A stretch of 64,000 nt of DNA, taken from NCBI GenBank assembly GCA_963677495.2, contig CAXXOU010000001.1, forward strand, positions 672,001-736,000. Reading direction: 5' to 3'. A program made the position numbers. The stretch is from Candidatus Cloacimonadales bacterium. Its GTDB lineage: Bacteria; Cloacimonadota; Cloacimonadia; Cloacimonadales; JAFGVF01. Below are positions 36,001 through 42,000 of the stretch, piece after piece. Positions within the stretch are counted from its first letter, which is position 1; each line of letters starts with the position of its first letter.

Positions 36001-39000
36001 TAGAGATTGGTGCATGTATAGGCTACTCTGCCATATTCATTGGTGAAGTGATGAAACAAAATGAAGGGAAACTTCATACAATAGAGATTGATGAACGCTT
36101 TATCCCTGAGATTTATGAGAACATACTTTCAGCAGATTTGTACAAGCAAATTGAAGTTATTAATGGTGATGCAGAGCAAAAACTTGAAGCGATACCCGGT
36201 GATGCAGATTGTATTGTGCTTGATGCGAATAAACCTTTATACCCGAGAATACTGGATTTATGCGTTGAGAAGCTGAAAGTCGGTGGTTTTATATTTGCTG
36301 ACGATACGCTCTTTAAACCAATGGGATTTGCAAAACGACTAAGTGAACCAATGGATGAATACAACAAACTTGTGTTCAAGAGAAAGGATTTAAAAAGTAC
36401 CATATTACCTATAGGTGATGGAATTACTTTGAGTATAAAGACAGATTAGGAGATATAATGAGAAAGATAATTATTACACTATTGAGCATTGTATTAGTTA
36501 CTATGCTTTTAGCATCAGAAAAGGACTTATTAAAACAGTTCAAGAAAGCAAAGATGAAGAAGCACAGTGGTGTACTCACAAAAATTGGTGATACTTGGCA
36601 CCTTGCGAAGGATAAGAAAAAGGGACCTGAGCTACATATTGACATTGAAGACTTAGAAGCATATGAAAGTCTGAAATGGGAGAATGGTACAGAGATAGAA
36701 CTTGTAGGTTTAACTCATAAAGGTAAGGTTCTTGTTACTAACATTTTCACCGAGACTGACACAATTCATATTCGTGACGCTAGAGGGATAAAACATACGA
36801 AAGAAACTCTTGCCGGTCAGTGGAAAGTAATTCCTAAGAAATGTATTAGCTGTGGGTTATGCGTAAAGCTATGTCCTGTTGACGCAGTTAAGATGGTCAA
36901 AGGTAAAGCTGTGATAGACCAATCAAAATGCATAAATTGCGGGAATTGTGCTCATGGTGGAATCAAAGGAAGAGGATGTCCTACAAGTGCGATTAAGAAA
37001 TAAAGCCCTCTTACTTCTTCTTGCAGTCTTAGTGTTCACGGGTTGTTCTGACTCAATCTCTAAGATATCTGTTGCTGGAAACGTCCCTCCAAGCCCTGTT
37101 TCTAATGTATCGACTTTATTAATCAACGATACATATCTCCAGGTTATATGGGATAACCCAAAGGAAAGTAGCCTTGACCATCACCGGATATATGTATGTG
37201 AGAATGCGGATTCTCTTAATTTGATTTCAAACCTGTATACTGATGCTTTACCTGGCAATTCAGAACAATCAAAACAAGGTATTACTATAAGAAATCTGCA
37301 ACCGGCAACTGAGTATAAAGTTGGAATCATTGCTTCAAACAGATATGGAAACGGTAAAGGTTTACAAGATTCTATTGTAGTGAGAACAGCTAACTTCCAT
37401 ATTGAGGATACTGAAGCCCCGGAAGCACCTGCTCTAGTGAATATCACCGGACACCTGACAAAAGGTATTGAATCAGCAACTAATACTGAACTGCAGATTG
37501 AATTTACTCCAACAGGATCAGGAGAACTGATAACTCCTGAAATCAGATTTGCCCCAATACCTGAGTTTGCCAATTGGGATGCTGCATGGCCAATATCTAA
37601 CCCTGATCTTTTCATACCTGAGGCAATAACAGGTGAAAAAGGGATTATTAAGTTTAGCTTTATTGATGCATTCTGGCCACTTCCATTCCAGACATCAGAT
37701 TATGAATTCGTAATCTATGTCAAAAGCAAAGATGCGGAAGGTAACCTATCAGAAGAGAGCATTGCTCTTACAGGCGTGTTTAAAGTTGAAGTTCAGTCCG
37801 GATGTATCAAATGCTGGAACTGTTTAGATGTCTGCCCTGAAAATGCAATCTCAAAGTCCAGCTCTAAAGCTGTAATTGATCTAACTAAGTGCACCAGATG
37901 CGGTAACTGTGTTTTAGAATGTGCAGATGATGGTTCAGAAGTTATCTTCTTCAAAACAGAGGAAGTGGGAGGAATCTAATAATGAAGAAATACTTACTTA
38001 TCGTACTTATACTAATCACAATTCTTCTTGCTGTCACTGTAGAGGATAGTAGAAACCCACTCGTAATCAAAAACAGATGCGTTGGTTGTGGAGACTGTAT
38101 TGAAGTTTGCCCGGTTCAGGCAATTGAACTTGCTAATGGAAAAGCTTTAATAGACAATGAGACTTGCATAAACTGTGGCAAGTGCTTTAAAGCATGCACT
38201 TATAATGCTATCAGGAGTGCTCATGAATAAGATAATATTAATTCTTGTAGTGATTGTAATAGCTTTAGCAGTTGGTTGCGACAAAGTAACTAAACCTGAG
38301 TATAATGTTGAAAGCTCAGCTTGTAATGCATGTGGTGCTTGCATTGATATCTGCCCCAATGATGCAATAGAGTTTGATAAGAATGGGAAAGCTATTATTG
38401 ACCAAACAAAGTGCATTCAGTGTGCTAAATGTATACCTGTTTGCCCACAAGGAGCGATTTACTAATGAAAATAATAATCTCAATCCTACTCCTTATCTCA
38501 CTTACAACTCTTGTTGCTTTTGATATAGATAGTTATAACGAACTTTCATTCGGAATGTATAGTATCGATGGTGAGAACTATTACAATTTACAGGAAGAGC
38601 TCTTCTCTGACGTTACTTTCAACGATAGTTGGACTGGTGGTATTGAACTTGATTTTGTGGCTTCTGAAGAGGGATTTAGCGAGATGAACTCCAACCTGTA
38701 TGATAGATTTAGAACATATCTTAACTGGAACTATAATCAAACCAATTTTTACACTAGCTTTAGTAACACTCTTTTTGATGCAGCTAAAACTAATGATATT
38801 GTTTTAGCCGGTCTTTACGATCCGATTGTTAAGCCTGTAACAAAGAATAACTTAGTTTTCAGTGCTTCTCAATCTTTGTGGAATCTCACATTAGAGGGTG
38901 CTATCAGATATAGAAATCTTAACTATGACTACAATGTAACAGAAGATGTTGAACAGGAAAACGATATGTTTACTGACCTAACTCTTACTTATGATGTTAC

Positions 39001-42000
39001 AGAAAGATTTGGTGTGTTCTCGACACTCTATTATAAAGATGATCTAAGCGATATTCCTAGTTCTGAAATTCCTGAAGACTATGAGGTTGAAGATCCCAAT
39101 AGCTACTTCGATGAGTTCACAGTTGGTGGAGGATTATTCTGGAAACAACGATTTGGAATGAATCATGGATTTAAAATATCAACTGCATATCTCAATCGGG
39201 ATGGAGAGACAATTCCAGAATATCTCAACCACTATTTTATTACTGATGCACGTTATAATTTCACTTTCACACCACAACTAAATGGTTTCCTTTCCTGCAT
39301 AAGCAGGGGATCTTTCAGTAAGGAAGAGAAGAAGTTTTATCGTGTTTCTAACCTTATAAGAGCACAGTTTAAGTACAGTCTTATGCCATTCGACTCCAGA
39401 GCATATATTGGAATCGGTGCTAAGTATAACCCTGAGAATGAGACTGACAGATATTACACTGAGCTTTCCTACCCCGTTTTCAACAGGATTACGATTAAAC
39501 TGGCTGATTACTACTCTCCGGAATATTATAACAATATTGTAACAGGAATTGAGTTTTCTTATGCTAAATATAACTCGTTCTATCTGGAGAATACTTTCTC
39601 TATGGTTGAGAATGATATTGTAGCATTAGACGACTACAACGAACTAAGGTTTGGAACAAGGATATCATTTTAATGTTTAAAACTTTGACAGAAGGGTTCC
39701 TACTAGGACTAACAACAGGTACAGTGTGCCTTGTTAGCTGCACACCAATATATCTACCGTTTATTATCTCTGAGAAACGTTCAATTGGAAAGAACTTTTT
39801 AAAGGTTATGGAGATTTCAATTGGTAGGTTCTTCTCATACCTATCTTTTGGTGCTCTTGCCGGCTGGCTTGGTGGTAATATCGAAACCATAGATAGAACA
39901 TTGTTCACCGGTATTGCTTATATCCTACTAACTGTATTTATGTTACTTTCTTTCTTTAGATTAACTAGAAAGGAGAAAAGCTGTCATATCCCTAAGTTTG
40001 TAAATGTAACTAAAAGTGCATTTTTACTAGGTATTTTCACCGGTATAAACTTCTGTCCATCATTCCTTATCGCATTGTCCAAAGCAGTTGATTTAGCAGG
40101 TGCTATGAGCGGGATTATGCTCTTTATGGGTTTCTTTTTTGGAACGTCACTGTTCCTAATTCCACTGGCATTCTCAGGATTCCTCTCTAAAATGAGCCTG
40201 ATGAAGAATATCGCTAGATACGCATCAGTTGCAGTTGCACTATATTTCCTCTATTCCGGTGTTGTGAAAATCAAAGATTTTGCCTTATCTACCCAAGCTA
40301 GAATCGTTGACCCGATCTCATCCGAGTATGATATTAAGCTTTTCACTTCTGATGTTGATAATCAATTCTATAAAGTGCTTTCTGATTCCCTGAATACTAT
40401 CAAATCAGAGCAGTTCACGTTAATAAAAACTAATGAGCTCAATCCTGACATGTTAGATAGCATTGAAGTTGGTACAATTATCCTTGTTGACCCGAAACTG
40501 GTAAATGATTCAAATATGGAAGCTATTCAAAACACAGACCATTATGTAATGAATCCTGGTTATGAACCCAAAGACGTTGTTCAGTTTCTACGAAACTATA
40601 GCATCAAGGTTGGCAAGAACCAATACCTTAAATGGGAGTTTTAAAAACCATTTTGATGATATGAGTACATTATAAGAGATGAAATAATCTACCAAAATCC
40701 CTTGTTTGTTGCTTGACAGTTTAAATCAGCTTAACAATATCTCTTAAAGGATGAGATTGATGAGTAAAATTGAGAGTCGAACACTATATTCGGATGGTTT
40801 GCTTCTATTAACCGCTGCAATCTGGGGATTTGCTTTTGTAGCTCAGAAAGTAGGAATGGAGAGCTGTGAGCCCTTCATGTTTAACGCAATCAGGTTTGCA
40901 TTAGGTGCTTTAGTTCTCATTCCTTTCCGCAAGAAGAAAATCAACTACCACACCCACTCGAAAGAGCTTAAATACTCAATCTTTACCGGATTAGCACTGT
41001 TTACTGCCGCCTCTCTTCAACAAATAGGAGTGAAGTTCACATCTGCAGGAAATGCAGGATTTATTACCGGGCTATATGTAGTATTTGTTCCTATAATCGG
41101 CATCTTCATAAAACAGAAAACTGGTTTAAGCGTATGGATAAGTTGTTTGTTCGCAATTTTAGGTATGTATTTTGTGAGTGTTTCCGGAAGTTTAAGTTTG
41201 ATGAAGGGTGACCTGTTCGTGCTTGCAAGTGCGGTTATTTGGGCTATTCACGTACAGCTTGTAGGCAAGATTGGTAGCAAACTTGGGGCAATACGTTTAG
41301 CAATGATTCAGTTCACTATCTGTTCGTTGTTAAGCTTCCTTACAGCAATGTTGTTCGAGACCAATAGCTTATCAGGTATATATCAGGCTACAGTTCCCAT
41401 TCTATATGGGGGATTGTTATCTGTAGGGATAGCTTATACATTGCAAATTGTAGCCCAAAAATCAGCTCCACCAAGCCATGCCGCTATCCTTCTTAGTATG
41501 GAATCAATGTTTGCAGTGCTGGGGGGAGTAGTAGTATTAAAAGAGAGTTTAACACTAAGATCAGGTATTGGTTTCAGCTTAATGCTAATCGCGATGTTCT
41601 TAGTACAAATAAAGCAATTTTTCGGATCAAACAAAACAAAGGAGAGATGAATGAAACGGATCACATTACTTTTAGTAATTTCATTCATGTTACTTAATCT
41701 GTTTTCCACGCCAACAGGCGTAACAGCCACAATTCCTGATGACGGACAGGGATTTTGGTCTGGCAACAGAGCGGTAGAGGGACGACCTGAGCTTAATATT
41801 ACCAGCTCAGAGACAACAAGTATTAATCATGAAAGATGGCAGGAAGTCAGTAGAATCGAGTTTGATGAGTACTTAGAACCCGGTACATATCTCGGTATTG
41901 AATACAACCCATGGAACTTCCAATTCACAAAAGTATCTAATCAATCCGGTTTAAACAGTGTAGCAGAAAGTGCAATTGCACGAGCTCCGGAATGGTTGAA

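Follow-up and report, generated by a model that had tools for sequence, protein, structure and literature searches.

Porin-cytochrome conduits, exemplified by MtrA inside the barrel MtrB, pass through the cell envelope. To our knowledge, every well-studied periplasmic Fe-S protein is exported via the Tat pathway, and we know of no system that assembles Fe-S clusters extracytoplasmically. A 64,000-nucleotide stretch (the window) of the genome of a Candidatus Cloacimonadales bacterium contains an operon that combines four ferredoxin-domain proteins with an outer-membrane barrel and a DsbD_2/CcdA-like protein, and no description of such a system was found in the literature. We propose that it encodes a haem-free iron-sulfur analogue of porin-cytochrome conduits, a reading to which we give an even chance of being right. 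The six genes, all on the + strand, are co-directional and overlapping, and span positions 36458-40644 of the window:

fdxA, 36458-37003, + strand: 181 aa, Fer4-type dicluster protein (Pfam)
fdxB, 36987-37979, + strand: 330 aa, from an inferred GTG start
fdxC, 37982-38230, + strand: 82 aa, two cluster motifs, the second ending C-T-Y
fdxD, 38223-38465, + strand: 80 aa, lipoprotein ferredoxin, 2x[4Fe-4S]
outer-membrane barrel gene, 38465-39673, + strand: 402 aa with a signal peptide, 20-stranded and plug-less
DsbD_2/CcdA-like gene, 39673-40644, + strand: 323 aa, PF13386 (E 2.9e-19), six-helix inner-membrane protein

The ORFs, Pfam domains and junctions agree with a preliminary description of this DNA as a six-gene operon of four ferredoxins, barrel and DsbD_2. 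Provided that its GTG start is correct, fdxB overlaps fdxA by 17 nt, and a GGAAGAGGA motif lies 10 nt 5' of this GTG. A gap of 2 nt separates fdxB from fdxC, fdxC and fdxD overlap by 8 nt, and the overlaps of fdxD with the barrel gene (TAATG) and of the barrel gene with the DsbD_2 gene are 1 nt each. A barrel start at 38462 was rejected, the true ATG being at 38465.

Fer4-type dicluster domains are assigned by Pfam to all of fdxA, fdxB, fdxC and fdxD. The N-terminus of fdxA reads MRKIIITLLSIVLVTMLLAS, and its homologues at three loci in relatives (L084, L092 and L102) likewise open with K/R and a hydrophobic run. That of fdxB reads ...LLLAVLVFTGC, the lipobox VFTG-C predicting a lipoprotein; the protein is composed of an FN3 domain, a middle part without an assigned family and a C-terminal 2x[4Fe-4S] domain, and larger FN3-ferredoxin proteins are encoded in relatives. 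In fdxC (MKKYLLIVLILITILLAV) MKK is followed by a 17-residue hydrophobic run, either a cleaved signal or an N-in anchor, while fdxD (MNKIILILVVIVIALAVGC) carries the lipobox LAVG-C19. This cysteine and the eight cluster cysteines of fdxD (nine Cys) are invariant in 29/29 homologues, extending the 12/12 reported earlier, and the eight cluster cysteines of fdxC are invariant in 28/28. The CxxCxxCxxxC spacing is fully kept in the small ferredoxins, mostly with a following Pro. Residue +2 after the lipobox cysteine varies (D, E, K), so that sorting to the inner or the outer membrane is not readable from sequence. In 29/29 fdxD-type and 28/28 fdxC-type proteins the positive charge of the n-region exceeds that of the following 15 residues, a bias that fits an N-in orientation; an RR pair falls among the first 12 residues in 2/29 and 0/28, respectively. 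Among the 37 frames of the genome that combine a CxxCxxCxxxC motif with a start codon, a signal-like N-terminus is present in six, four of which are fdxA-D, a concentration in the operon that is more than chance.

Searches of the genome, which is 99.46% complete, gave no match for TatC, TatA or Cytochrom_C_asm, whereas these were found in 11, 11 and 9, respectively, of the 14 reference genomes used as positive controls. No stop-to-stop frame of at least 80 aa in the genome has two or more CxxCH motifs. The lack of TatA/TatC and of cytochrome maturation noted in the preliminary description is therefore upheld. Across the order, TatC was found in only 9/201 genomes, two of them among the 85 that are barrel-positive. 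Lgt, LspA, LolA, Omp85 and SprA are present in the genome studied. Relatives encode proteins of 178-183 aa comprising a signal, 2xFer4 and a type IX secretion (T9SS) tail. TIGR04183 scored 33.4 and 41.6 bits on relatives' ferredoxins (cut-off 23) and PF18962 scored 28.9-49.7 bits (cut-off 27) on those of L007/L034, L028/L042, L035 and L046; a 257-aa ferredoxin with such a tail (PF18962, 29.3 bits) is also encoded in the genome studied (G000, C2:348321). These tails are an independent sign that the ferredoxin domains, which are also found fused to FN3 and CarboxypepD_reg domains, work outside the cytoplasm. We infer that fdxA-D are exported, and a non-Tat route is supported by this sequence evidence, which was obtained independently of the preliminary description.

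It is quite unlikely, in our judgement, that the ferredoxin domains are instead not extracytoplasmic Fe-S proteins, being either anchored in the cytoplasm, with the hydrophobic N-terminus as a membrane anchor as in RnfB, or free of clusters and holding another metal or disulfides. Such a reading would accord with the exclusive use of Tat by the well-studied periplasmic Fe-S proteins that we know of and with the want of any extracytoplasmic cluster-assembly system known to us, for which no candidate was found here either. The topology is deduced from sequence rules, and the uncharged run of fdxC-type proteins (16-25 residues) is within membrane-helix range; however, the charge bias opposes an N-out anchor in 57/57 small ferredoxins, and the lipobox cysteine is invariant in 29/29 fdxD homologues in the presence of lipoprotein machinery. 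The fusions to T9SS tails, FN3 and CarboxypepD_reg and the membership of an outer-membrane barrel in the operon also argue against it, as does the kept CxxCxxCxxxC spacing, which is a requirement of cluster binding and not of disulfides.

The barrel protein matches no Pfam or NCBIfam family. The plug-less, 20-stranded model reported previously (pLDDT 90.6) was reproduced with a new, 27-row alignment (20 strands, no plug, pLDDT 86.2), and the C-terminal Phe, F402, is invariant in 27/27. Its fold matches are exclusively outer-membrane barrels, the nearest again being TonB-dependent receptor barrels and OccK/OpdK porins. Because the chain begins with strand 1 at residue 20, it lacks both a plug domain and a TonB box region. 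Presence of the family in the order is confirmed but its extent differs, with matches in 85/201 genomes, G000 included, rather than in 16/45. Similarly, a single-sequence phmmer search (E <= 0.001) returned 48 representatives among 1.84 billion proteins, where 74 had been listed from a query of unstated type.

In complex predictions fdxD was placed inside the barrel lumen with ipSAE values of 0.85, 0.85 and 0.84, versus 0.00 for the best of three controls, with 128 contacts and a partner pLDDT of 86-88. The same ipSAE mark was reached by 116/157 solved and 2/215 mismatched pairs in calibration of the tool, which is only roughly applicable because our own alignments were used and two clusters were included in the complex; the score expresses how confident the model itself is, under conditions other than those calibrated. 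The predicted interface contacts nearly every barrel strand and the long loops, and takes in eight of the nine conserved polar barrel residues (N75, R150, K191, R263, R293, R299, E324 and N325), N296 being the sole one outside. The modelling thus supports, independently of the preliminary description, a predicted architecture with a redox protein within an outer-membrane barrel. The model has fdxD in the outward-facing half of the lumen, next to the extracellular loops, and such a position could equally be that of a transport intermediate, with the barrel acting like Slam-type lipoprotein exporters as a translocon or anchor that carries fdxD, and perhaps other small ferredoxins, to the surface for tasks such as reducing sulfur compounds, humics or oxidants, with no fixed wire. 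Surface-exposed lipoproteins are frequent in the related Bacteroidota, and fdxD and the barrel are translationally coupled by their 1-nt overlap. We nevertheless find this improbable, since contacts of 8/9 conserved polar lumen residues with a folded ferredoxin fit a resident plug better than passing cargo and the other surface ferredoxins of these genomes take the type IX route. No similarity to known lipoprotein exporters appeared in the fold searches, a result compatible with either view.

The conserved core of the system is fdxC, fdxD and the barrel. A lipobox ferredoxin of the fdxD type is directly upstream of the barrel in 29/29 readable loci (12/13 in the earlier count), and an fdxC-type protein, the second signal-bearing ferredoxin of ~83 aa seen before in 10/13, is upstream in 29/29, with an unclear start in one and a more distant gene in another. 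Of 16 further barrel loci from another family, 13 have both small ferredoxins and none lacks both. Other redox proteins also occur nearby. A NapH-like PF12801 protein is encoded inside the operon at L042 and L043, and operons of a NapH-like protein, a signal-peptide polyferredoxin and DsbD_2 are found at L083, L109 and L116. The L074 operon resembles these, with an ambiguous start of the polyferredoxin frame. The one NapH-like gene of the genome studied is away from the operon (C4:230604-231386). In family f4, a T9SS DUF2271 protein adjoins the barrel in 9/16 loci and lies within ~3.5 kb in 15/16; a [ST][GS]A[ST] site is present in 9/9 of these DUF2271 proteins and ApbE in 12/12 genomes of the family. 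In published work (PMC8238504), DUF2271 is described as an extracytosolic domain flavinylated by ApbE, and the transmembrane electron-transfer modules include both NapH-like and DsbD proteins.

The DsbD_2 protein (model pLDDT 80.5) has four invariant cysteines (C19, C23, C104 and C128, alignment of 26), a mostly conserved His beside C104 and a C-terminal alpha/beta domain of ~115 aa without Cys that is predicted to be periplasmic by the positive-inside rule. At least one same-strand ferredoxin-motif ORF is located within 3.3 kb upstream in 65/72 subfamily loci with enough upstream DNA. DsbD_2 is not a constant partner of the barrel, which it directly followed in 11/13 loci of the preliminary description: the subfamily profile has no match in 33/85 barrel-positive genomes, including the 99%-complete G020, and the protein is therefore not essential to the barrel-ferredoxin core. 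In G020 (L028/L042), Fur, FeoB, FeoA and FeoC follow the barrel where DsbD_2 otherwise stands, and at L034 the operon is flanked by heavy-metal P-type ATPase and HMA genes.

These neighbours favour iron or iron-sulfur acquisition, in which the barrel and lipoprotein would form a nutrient-uptake pair, a surface arrangement common in this superphylum, the exported ferredoxins would reduce Fe(III) or capture FeS, and DsbD_2 would be a metal permease. DsbD_2 is related to metal-permease families, its cysteines and His could bind metal, and the best barrel folds are TonB-dependent metal/siderophore receptors and Bacteroides barrel-lipoprotein pairs, with the ferredoxin receptor FusA among the matches (Z 14.5). 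The single Fur-FeoBAC locus and the permease kinship count against a conduit and point towards iron. The receptor likeness, however, is generic barrel similarity (TM 0.4-0.59) in a protein without plug domain or TonB box region, and Fur/Feo adjacency is confined to one genus, phmmer searches with Fur and FeoB finding none in 80 DsbD_2 loci or 16 family f4 loci. Four to six dicluster proteins, a NapH-like Fe-S protein and secreted flavoprotein neighbours also exceed the needs of a ferric reductase, and we regard iron acquisition as unlikely.

In the proposed haem-free conduit, fdxA-D would be made with Sec or lipoprotein signals, exit the cytoplasm unfolded and acquire their [4Fe-4S] clusters after export, in an anoxic periplasm rich in iron and sulfide. 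Like MtrA in MtrB, fdxD would act as a plug in a 20-strand barrel that is otherwise empty, and the two clusters of fdxD would span the outer membrane, with fdxC and fdxA acting on the periplasmic side. The outer component may be fdxB, the FN3 lipoprotein; T9SS ferredoxins or DUF2271 flavoproteins, which occur in relatives and at other sites of this genome, are also proposed for this role. The thiol-disulfide family to which DsbD_2 belongs has a potential ill-suited to ferredoxin reduction. DsbD_2 would most likely send reducing power outward to keep the cluster cysteines of the exported ferredoxins reduced, as CcdA serves apocytochromes, and is less likely to be an electron or metal carrier. 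Electrons would probably enter, in some relatives, through the NapH-like membrane Fe-S protein. The order of carriers is guesswork, and small ferredoxins alone would be unable to bridge the periplasm.

The interpretation in the preliminary description is thus supported as to non-Tat export and a redox protein inside the barrel, while a role in extracellular or interspecies electron transfer would be by analogy. According to a review (PMC8892533), Ca. Cloacimonetes have a reduced content of hydrogenases and formate dehydrogenases, which is there taken to hint at direct electron transfer. The likely purpose of the conduit would be the disposal or uptake of low-potential electrons outside the cell, to or from a putative partner, in a cytochrome-free syntroph. 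If this is true, a cytochrome-free, Tat-free fermenting bacterium would possess a haem-free wire across its envelope, built with ferredoxins exported by the ordinary secretion route.

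The segment 36458-40644 holds six genes that all run in one direction and follow one another with almost no spacing (fdxA and fdxB overlap by 17 nt, a 2-nt gap follows, and the remaining three junctions are overlaps of 8, 1 and 1 nt). The operon is flanked by genes for an O-methyltransferase and an EamA transporter. Its genes and three further features of the window are as follows.

36458-40644, six-gene operon, one direction, in the order:
fdxA, 181 aa, Fer4-type dicluster domain (Pfam)
fdxB, 330 aa if read from the inferred GTG at 36987, Fer4-type dicluster domain and FN3 domain (Pfam)
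fdxC, 82 aa, Fer4-type dicluster domain (Pfam)
fdxD, 80 aa, Fer4-type dicluster domain (Pfam)
barrel, start 38465, 402 aa, no Pfam or NCBIfam family
DsbD_2, 323 aa, PF13386 (E 2.9e-19)
33562-34677 (+), 371-aa protein with an N-terminal zinc ribbon (PF13453) and a weak rhomboid-like membrane domain (E 0.002, below cut-off)
41651-46900 (+), 1749-aa protein with a signal peptide, immediately after the EamA gene, with repeated CarboxypepD_reg-like stretches and a C-terminal T9SS-type tail matched by a neighbour-protein HMM
47984-49045 (-), 354-aa DUF362 protein (PF04015, E 3.7e-38) into which a 2x[4Fe-4S] domain is inserted

Genes, junctions and domains were read directly and agree with the operon of exported ferredoxins, barrel and DsbD_2 given in the preliminary description, in which only the barrel start (38465) and some counts needed small corrections. 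A scan for promoters and terminators was uninformative, with 19 promoter-like sites vs 18.3 expected and 0 terminators. The stretch is present in four sequencing runs of one study, none of which is recorded as RNA.

As had been claimed, TatA, TatC and c-type cytochromes are missing from the genome, whose completeness is 99.46%. Profile searches for TatC, TatA and the cytochrome c assembly family (PF01578) gave no match in it and were positive in 11, 11 and 9, respectively, of 14 reference genomes used as controls, and no frame of at least 80 aa in the whole genome contains two or more CxxCH motifs. TatC was detected in nine of 201 sampled genomes of the order, three of the nine being among 133 high-quality genomes and two among 85 barrel-positive genomes. 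The genome does encode Lgt and LspA (one match each), LolA, six Omp85-family matches, a SprA-like 2063-aa frame and ApbE.

All four operon ferredoxins match Pfam Fer4 (PF00037/PF12838, E 1e-8 to 4e-15) and carry, within a domain of ∼55 residues, the two CxxCxxCxxxC(P) motifs that characterize bacterial-type 2x[4Fe-4S] ferredoxins, the second motif of fdxA being interrupted by a 9-residue insert. Each begins with lysine or arginine residues followed by a hydrophobic run, which in fdxB and fdxD closes at a lipobox cysteine (VFTG-C and LAVG-C19, respectively). These features were compared across 30 loci of the order to which the genome belongs, 29 of which are readable and one of which is cut by a contig end. 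A 79-83-aa ferredoxin with [GAS]-Cys after a hydrophobic run lies immediately upstream of the barrel in 29/29, with the lipobox cysteine and all eight cluster cysteines invariant, and a second ferredoxin of 80-88 aa also lies upstream in 29/29 (one with an ambiguous start and one with the gene further away), its eight cysteines being invariant in the 28 aligned; as related genomes are not independent, these conservation and synteny counts overstate the support. The residue that follows the lipobox cysteine (+2) varies, and gives no readout of the membrane to which fdxD would be sorted.

In all 29 fdxD-type and all 28 fdxC-type proteins the n-region is more positively charged than the next 15 residues, a bias that, as read from the sequences, is the opposite of that in an RnfB-type N-out anchor. 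Two adjacent arginines occur within the first 12 residues in 2/29 fdxD-type and 0/28 fdxC-type proteins, that is, in 2/57 small ferredoxins, and with no TatC or TatA match in the genome the operon ferredoxins do not resemble Tat substrates. Genome-wide, six of 37 frames with ferredoxin motifs have a signal-like start, and four of these six are in the operon. The other two are a ferredoxin with a type IX secretion system (T9SS) tail on contig C2 and the DUF362 protein at 47984-49045, whose N-terminus MKMFITIVVLLLLVVLCAKS is signal-like or lipobox-like and which may be a further Fe–S protein exported without Tat.

The operons of relatives encode, in addition, 178-183-aa proteins in which a dicluster ferredoxin domain lies between a signal peptide and a T9SS tail. 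Two of these tails scored 33.4 and 41.6 bits with TIGR04183 (cut-off 23), and PF18962 was above its cut-off in the ferredoxins of loci L007/L034, L028/L042, L035 and L046. The genome studied here encodes such a protein at C2:348321-349094 (L142:522-1292), where a signal, two Fer4 domains, a CarboxypepD_reg domain and PF18962 (29.3 bits vs 27) make up a 257-aa ferredoxin; a gene for an SMP-30/gluconolactonase-like exported protein comes after it. None of the four window ferredoxins has a C-terminal sorting domain (PF18962 or TIGR04183), hence they do not themselves look like type IX cargo. On a ferredoxin domain, a T9SS tail is meaningful only where that domain has its function outside the cytoplasm, and the tailed proteins are thus, by their predicted sorting signals, a new and independent argument for extracytoplasmic ferredoxin domains. 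Together with the export signals, the charge bias and the conserved lipobox, they uphold the proposal that the ferredoxins leave the cytoplasm by a non-Tat route, with topology and lipidation predicted from sequence. The alternative that the operon ferredoxins have no true Fe–S function beyond the cytoplasm appears to us quite improbable.

The barrel that follows these exported ferredoxins was modelled from a 27-row alignment with a pLDDT of 86.2. The model has 20 strands and no plug, with short turns at one end and long loops at the opposite end, in line with the plug-less 20-strand barrel previously proposed. Strand 1 is predicted to begin at residue 20, preceded only by the signal peptide, and the C-terminal phenylalanine is invariant. 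Fold searches returned only generic outer-membrane barrels, namely TonB-dependent receptors (Z 15-17.5), OccK/OpdK porins, VDAC/Tom40 and Bacteroides barrel-lipoprotein pairs (entries for barrel-lipoprotein systems and for the ferredoxin receptor FusA among the matches are 4rhb at rank 50, 5t3r at Z 16.5, 8blw at Z 14.4 and 4zgv at Z 14.5); MtrB was absent among the listed matches. The 22 strands, N-terminal plug and TonB box of TonB-dependent or SusC-like receptors were not found in the barrel, which also gave no Plug or TonB_dep_Rec Pfam match. The model shares with porin-cytochrome conduits a large outer-membrane β-barrel that has no plug domain.

A complex of barrel residues 19-402 with mature fdxD (residues 19-80) and two riding clusters was predicted with ipSAE values of 0.85, 0.85 and 0.84, vs 0.00 for the best of three controls, and with 128 contacts and a partner pLDDT of 86-88. 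In calibration, 116 of 157 solved pairs and 2 of 215 mismatched pairs attained this ipSAE, a benchmark that holds only roughly here, where our own alignments were used and small molecules were present. Nearly every strand and the long loops are touched in the predicted interface, which would place fdxD in the lumen, toward the loop side. Eight of nine conserved polar barrel residues lie in the interface (N75, R150, K191, R263, R293, R299, E324 and N325, with N296 outside), and this overlap is a consistency check on the model that is independent of the complex score. The prediction supports binding of fdxD to the barrel. A barrel that exports or anchors a surface ferredoxin would be another use of such a complex, and we give this a slim chance beside the role in electron transfer.

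DsbD_2 matches PF13386 with 70.2 bits (cut-off 24.9), and four cysteines are invariant in 26/26 homologues. Helix 1 carries C19 and C23, helix 4 carries C128 as part of an FCP motif, and the loop that leads into helix 4 carries C104 within C-H-[IV]-P. C23 and C128 provide the one cysteine each in helices 1 and 4 that is typical of CcdA-like proteins, and DsbD_2 is a putative thiol-disulfide transporter. The positive-inside rule suggests that loops 1-2, 3-4 and 5-6 are cytoplasmic and that both termini are outside, which we take to agree with the topology of CcdA, and the outside part would include a confidently modelled ∼115-aa α/β domain without cysteine. Canonical DsbD and CcdA-like genes are also present in the genome, and DsbD_2 is therefore a specialised third paralogue. 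With the DsbD_2 model as query, a fold search matched RnfA at Z 8.0 (rmsd 6.3 over 150 aligned residues) and NqrE at Z 7.6 (rmsd 6.5 over 152), scores that are tied with those of halves of MFS transporters (Z 7-8.8), which are unrelated six-helix bundles, and that are below a meaningful level for helical bundles. An intramembrane cluster in DsbD_2 like that of RnfA/E is accordingly a lead only. Nothing clear came from a Foldseek search with the model, and the profile gave only a chance match to PDB sequences (E 0.16). The C-terminal domain resembles generic receiver, periplasmic-binding-protein and flavodoxin-like folds (Z 6.3-7.8), from which no function follows.

Matches to the DsbD_2 profile were collected from 80 loci, 78 of them titled Cloacimonadota or Cloacimonetes (four of these only 'uncultured bacterium'), one Delongbacteria and one an Armatimonadota MAG. 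Among the 72 with at least 1.4 kb of upstream DNA, the barrel is immediately upstream of DsbD_2 in 42 and another barrel-sized ORF in 16 (11 of 13 barrel-sized ORFs checked had a signal-like start and an aromatic end), and at least one same-strand ORF with ferredoxin motifs lies within 3.3 kb upstream in 65. Barrel and DsbD_2 occur together in 52 of the 201 sampled genomes, the barrel alone in 33, DsbD_2 alone in 34 and neither in 82. These counts indicate that DsbD_2 follows the exported ferredoxins and not the barrel. It is not a constant operon member: judged by profile matches, DsbD_2 is dispensable to the fdxC-fdxD-barrel core, as 33 of 85 barrel-positive genomes contain no match to its subfamily.

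One such case is G020, a relative whose operon (L028/L042) consists of a fdxA-like gene, a NapH-like gene (PF12801), a fdxB-like gene, a T9SS-ferredoxin, fdxC, fdxD and the barrel, followed by Fur, FeoB, FeoA and FeoC. The last four (L042:10610-13904) occupy the usual place of DsbD_2, for which this 99%-complete genome has no subfamily match. The presence of Fur-Feo after the barrel, found in one genus, would fit a cassette for the acquisition of iron or Fe–S clusters, as would the metal-receptor-like fold of the barrel and the richness of DsbD_2 in cysteine and histidine; we nevertheless judge such a role unlikely. Another relative, G142 (L043), has both NapH-like and DsbD_2 genes, and a NapH-like protein, a signal-peptide polyferredoxin and DsbD_2 are encoded together in the barrel-less loci L083, L109 and L116, and similarly in L074, where the start of the polyferredoxin frame is ambiguous.

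Redox proteins of other types also adjoin the cassette in some genomes. Among the 16 loci read in family f4, which holds most barrel-only genomes, 13 have both small ferredoxins ahead of the barrel and all 16 have at least one. A ∼365-aa T9SS protein with a DUF2271 domain adjoins the barrel in 9/16 and is within ∼3.5 kb in 15/16; the domain scored 33-43 bits in the four f4 proteins tested (cut-off 27.3), and a [ST][GS]A[ST] site is present in 9/9. A homologue of these neighbours, a 385-aa T9SS DUF2271 protein with a candidate flavinylation site (TGAS), is encoded in the present genome at C3:470163-471320, where it stands alone. Beside the cassette in a genome of the same genus (L033:11905-16867) and in another family (L044:4188-8621) are genes for an AhpC/TSA-redoxin-type thiol oxidoreductase and a DUF6029 protein, with a canonical DsbD in L033 only and a T9SS protein in L044 only; this cluster is not in the window. 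HydF and a 593-aa [FeFe] hydrogenase adjoin the T9SS-ferredoxin end of the cassette in G036 (L046:11875-15728), and a sigma-54 two-component system and a NapH-like gene are on its other side. An 830-aa NAD(P)H-type oxidoreductase beside the cassette (L041, L057, L092) was considered as the electron input and rejected, being without a membrane segment and resembling a dihydropyrimidine-dehydrogenase-type enzyme (Pfam Fer4_20 'Dihydroprymidine dehydrogenase domain II', Pyr_redox_2); elsewhere in that family the neighbours of the cassette include pyrE- and pyrF-type genes on its flanks. A Protein Atlas search with an operon protein returned only that protein's own Cloacimonadota cluster.

Porin-cytochrome conduits (MtrCAB of Shewanella, Pcc OmbB-OmaB-OmcB of Geobacter and PioAB/MtoAB) have a barrel of at least 20 strands with a redox protein in its lumen, as the complex model predicts here. 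In both, the gene for the inserted protein (here the predicted one) directly precedes that for the barrel, a lipoprotein or secreted redox protein is on the outside (here a proposed one), and several multi-centre carriers are encoded per operon. However, the present genome has no haem carrier of this kind, with neither a CxxCH-rich frame nor any Ccm or Ccs gene. The carriers would instead be 2x[4Fe-4S] ferredoxins, a shared sequence family did not emerge from the Pfam and NCBIfam searches, and the predicted plug is a 60-residue two-centre lipoprotein rather than a decahaem protein. The operon thus appears to work like a porin-cytochrome conduit but, for want of haem, fails the defining test of that family. 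The NapGH, NosGH and MauMN modules similarly combine a periplasmic ferredoxin with a membrane redox protein, and relatives carry the PF12801 gene within the operon (L042, L043), although none is in the window and the single copy in this genome is on a different contig (C4:230604-231386), beside unrelated genes. NapG-type ferredoxins use twin-arginine signals, unlike the ferredoxins described here, and Nap and Nos systems have no outer-membrane barrel.

The CcdA/DsbD proteins of cytochrome c maturation are also six-helix membrane proteins with cysteines in helices 1 and 4, encoded beside Sec-exported cysteine-rich redox apoproteins, and by analogy DsbD_2 may have the same job of keeping cofactor-binding thiols reduced outside the cytoplasm. 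It differs in belonging to PF13386 and not PF02683, in its extra invariant C19 and C104 and in its C-terminal domain, and ferredoxin clients would be unprecedented. In LptD-LptE, where the lipoprotein plugs the barrel, and in the SusCD-like and BtuB-BtuG pairs of Bacteroides a lipoprotein is encoded beside a large barrel, and here too it is predicted to fill or cap the lumen; FusA is a ferredoxin receptor, and a ferredoxin can reportedly enter its lumen. Those barrels have 22 or 26 strands, compared with 20 and no plug domain or TonB box region here, and they move lipopolysaccharide or nutrients and are not known to carry redox centres in the lumen. In Shewanella DmsEFAB an Fe–S subunit reportedly operates on the outward side of the outer membrane, next to a barrel of the MtrB type, which resembles the arrangement proposed here; however, its Fe–S subunits reportedly fold in the cytoplasm before Tat and type II secretion export them, and a decahaem cytochrome is needed.

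Likewise cytochrome-independent are the flavinylation-based chains outside the cytosol, for which passages of one study describe flavinylation of DUF2271 by ApbE at a [S/T]GA[S/T] motif and list NapH-like and DsbD proteins among the classes of transmembrane electron-transfer modules for extracytosolic redox (PMC8238504). The same classes of membrane partner and ApbE occur here, and one family of the order has the T9SS DUF2271 protein with [ST][GS]A[ST] next to the barrel, but the carriers in the window are Fe–S proteins and not flavoproteins. These passages mention no exported ferredoxins or barrel, and the main text contains 'Cloacimon' 0 times, although its supplementary tables may list such clusters. 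The literature searched offered no account of exported ferredoxins with a barrel, and a Cloacimonadota pangenome preprint does not mention 'twin-arginine', '4Fe-4S' or 'iron'.

The genes, sorting signals, conservation, synteny, missing Tat and cytochromes, barrel fold, controlled in silico complex and redox character of the neighbours are what the analysis shows. That the operon constitutes a haem-free iron-sulfur electron path through the envelope is a reading to which we assign about an even chance. In this reading the apoferredoxins would exit through Sec, with Lol or the type IX system, and acquire their [4Fe-4S] clusters after export, in a sulfidic, iron-rich anoxic periplasm where DsbD_2 would keep the cluster thiols reduced. 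Electrons would enter at the membrane through the NapH-like protein where present, and in this genome possibly through DsbD_2, and could then pass via fdxA or fdxC to fdxD in the barrel and on to fdxB, the T9SS ferredoxin or the DUF2271 flavoprotein at the surface, and low-potential electrons would be disposed of, or taken up, outside the cell. More tentatively, and as a possibility rather than an expectation, Fe–S proteins might be completed outside the cytoplasm in strict anaerobes, with DsbD_2 supplying reductant, or possibly iron or an intramembrane cluster relay, and such a barrel-sheathed ferredoxin wire might pass very low-potential electrons directly to partners or minerals in the cytochrome-free syntrophs of the whole phylum.

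By the textbook rules, Fe–S proteins reach the periplasm only ready-folded, through Tat, and multihaem cytochromes are the only carriers that take electrons across the outer membrane. Both rules are touched by a cassette that is conserved in a Tat-less, cytochrome-less phylum and that makes them directly testable with small, easily expressed proteins. A two-cluster ferredoxin in a 20-strand barrel would be the smallest trans-membrane electron wire known, and of interest for bioelectrochemistry. Cloacimonadota are abundant in anaerobic digesters. According to passages of one review, the hydrogenase and formate-dehydrogenase gene content of Ca. Cloacimonetes is reduced compared with other syntrophic propionate oxidisers, and they may prefer direct electron transfer (PMC8892533). 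The cassette could explain how Cloacimonadota dispose of their reducing power.
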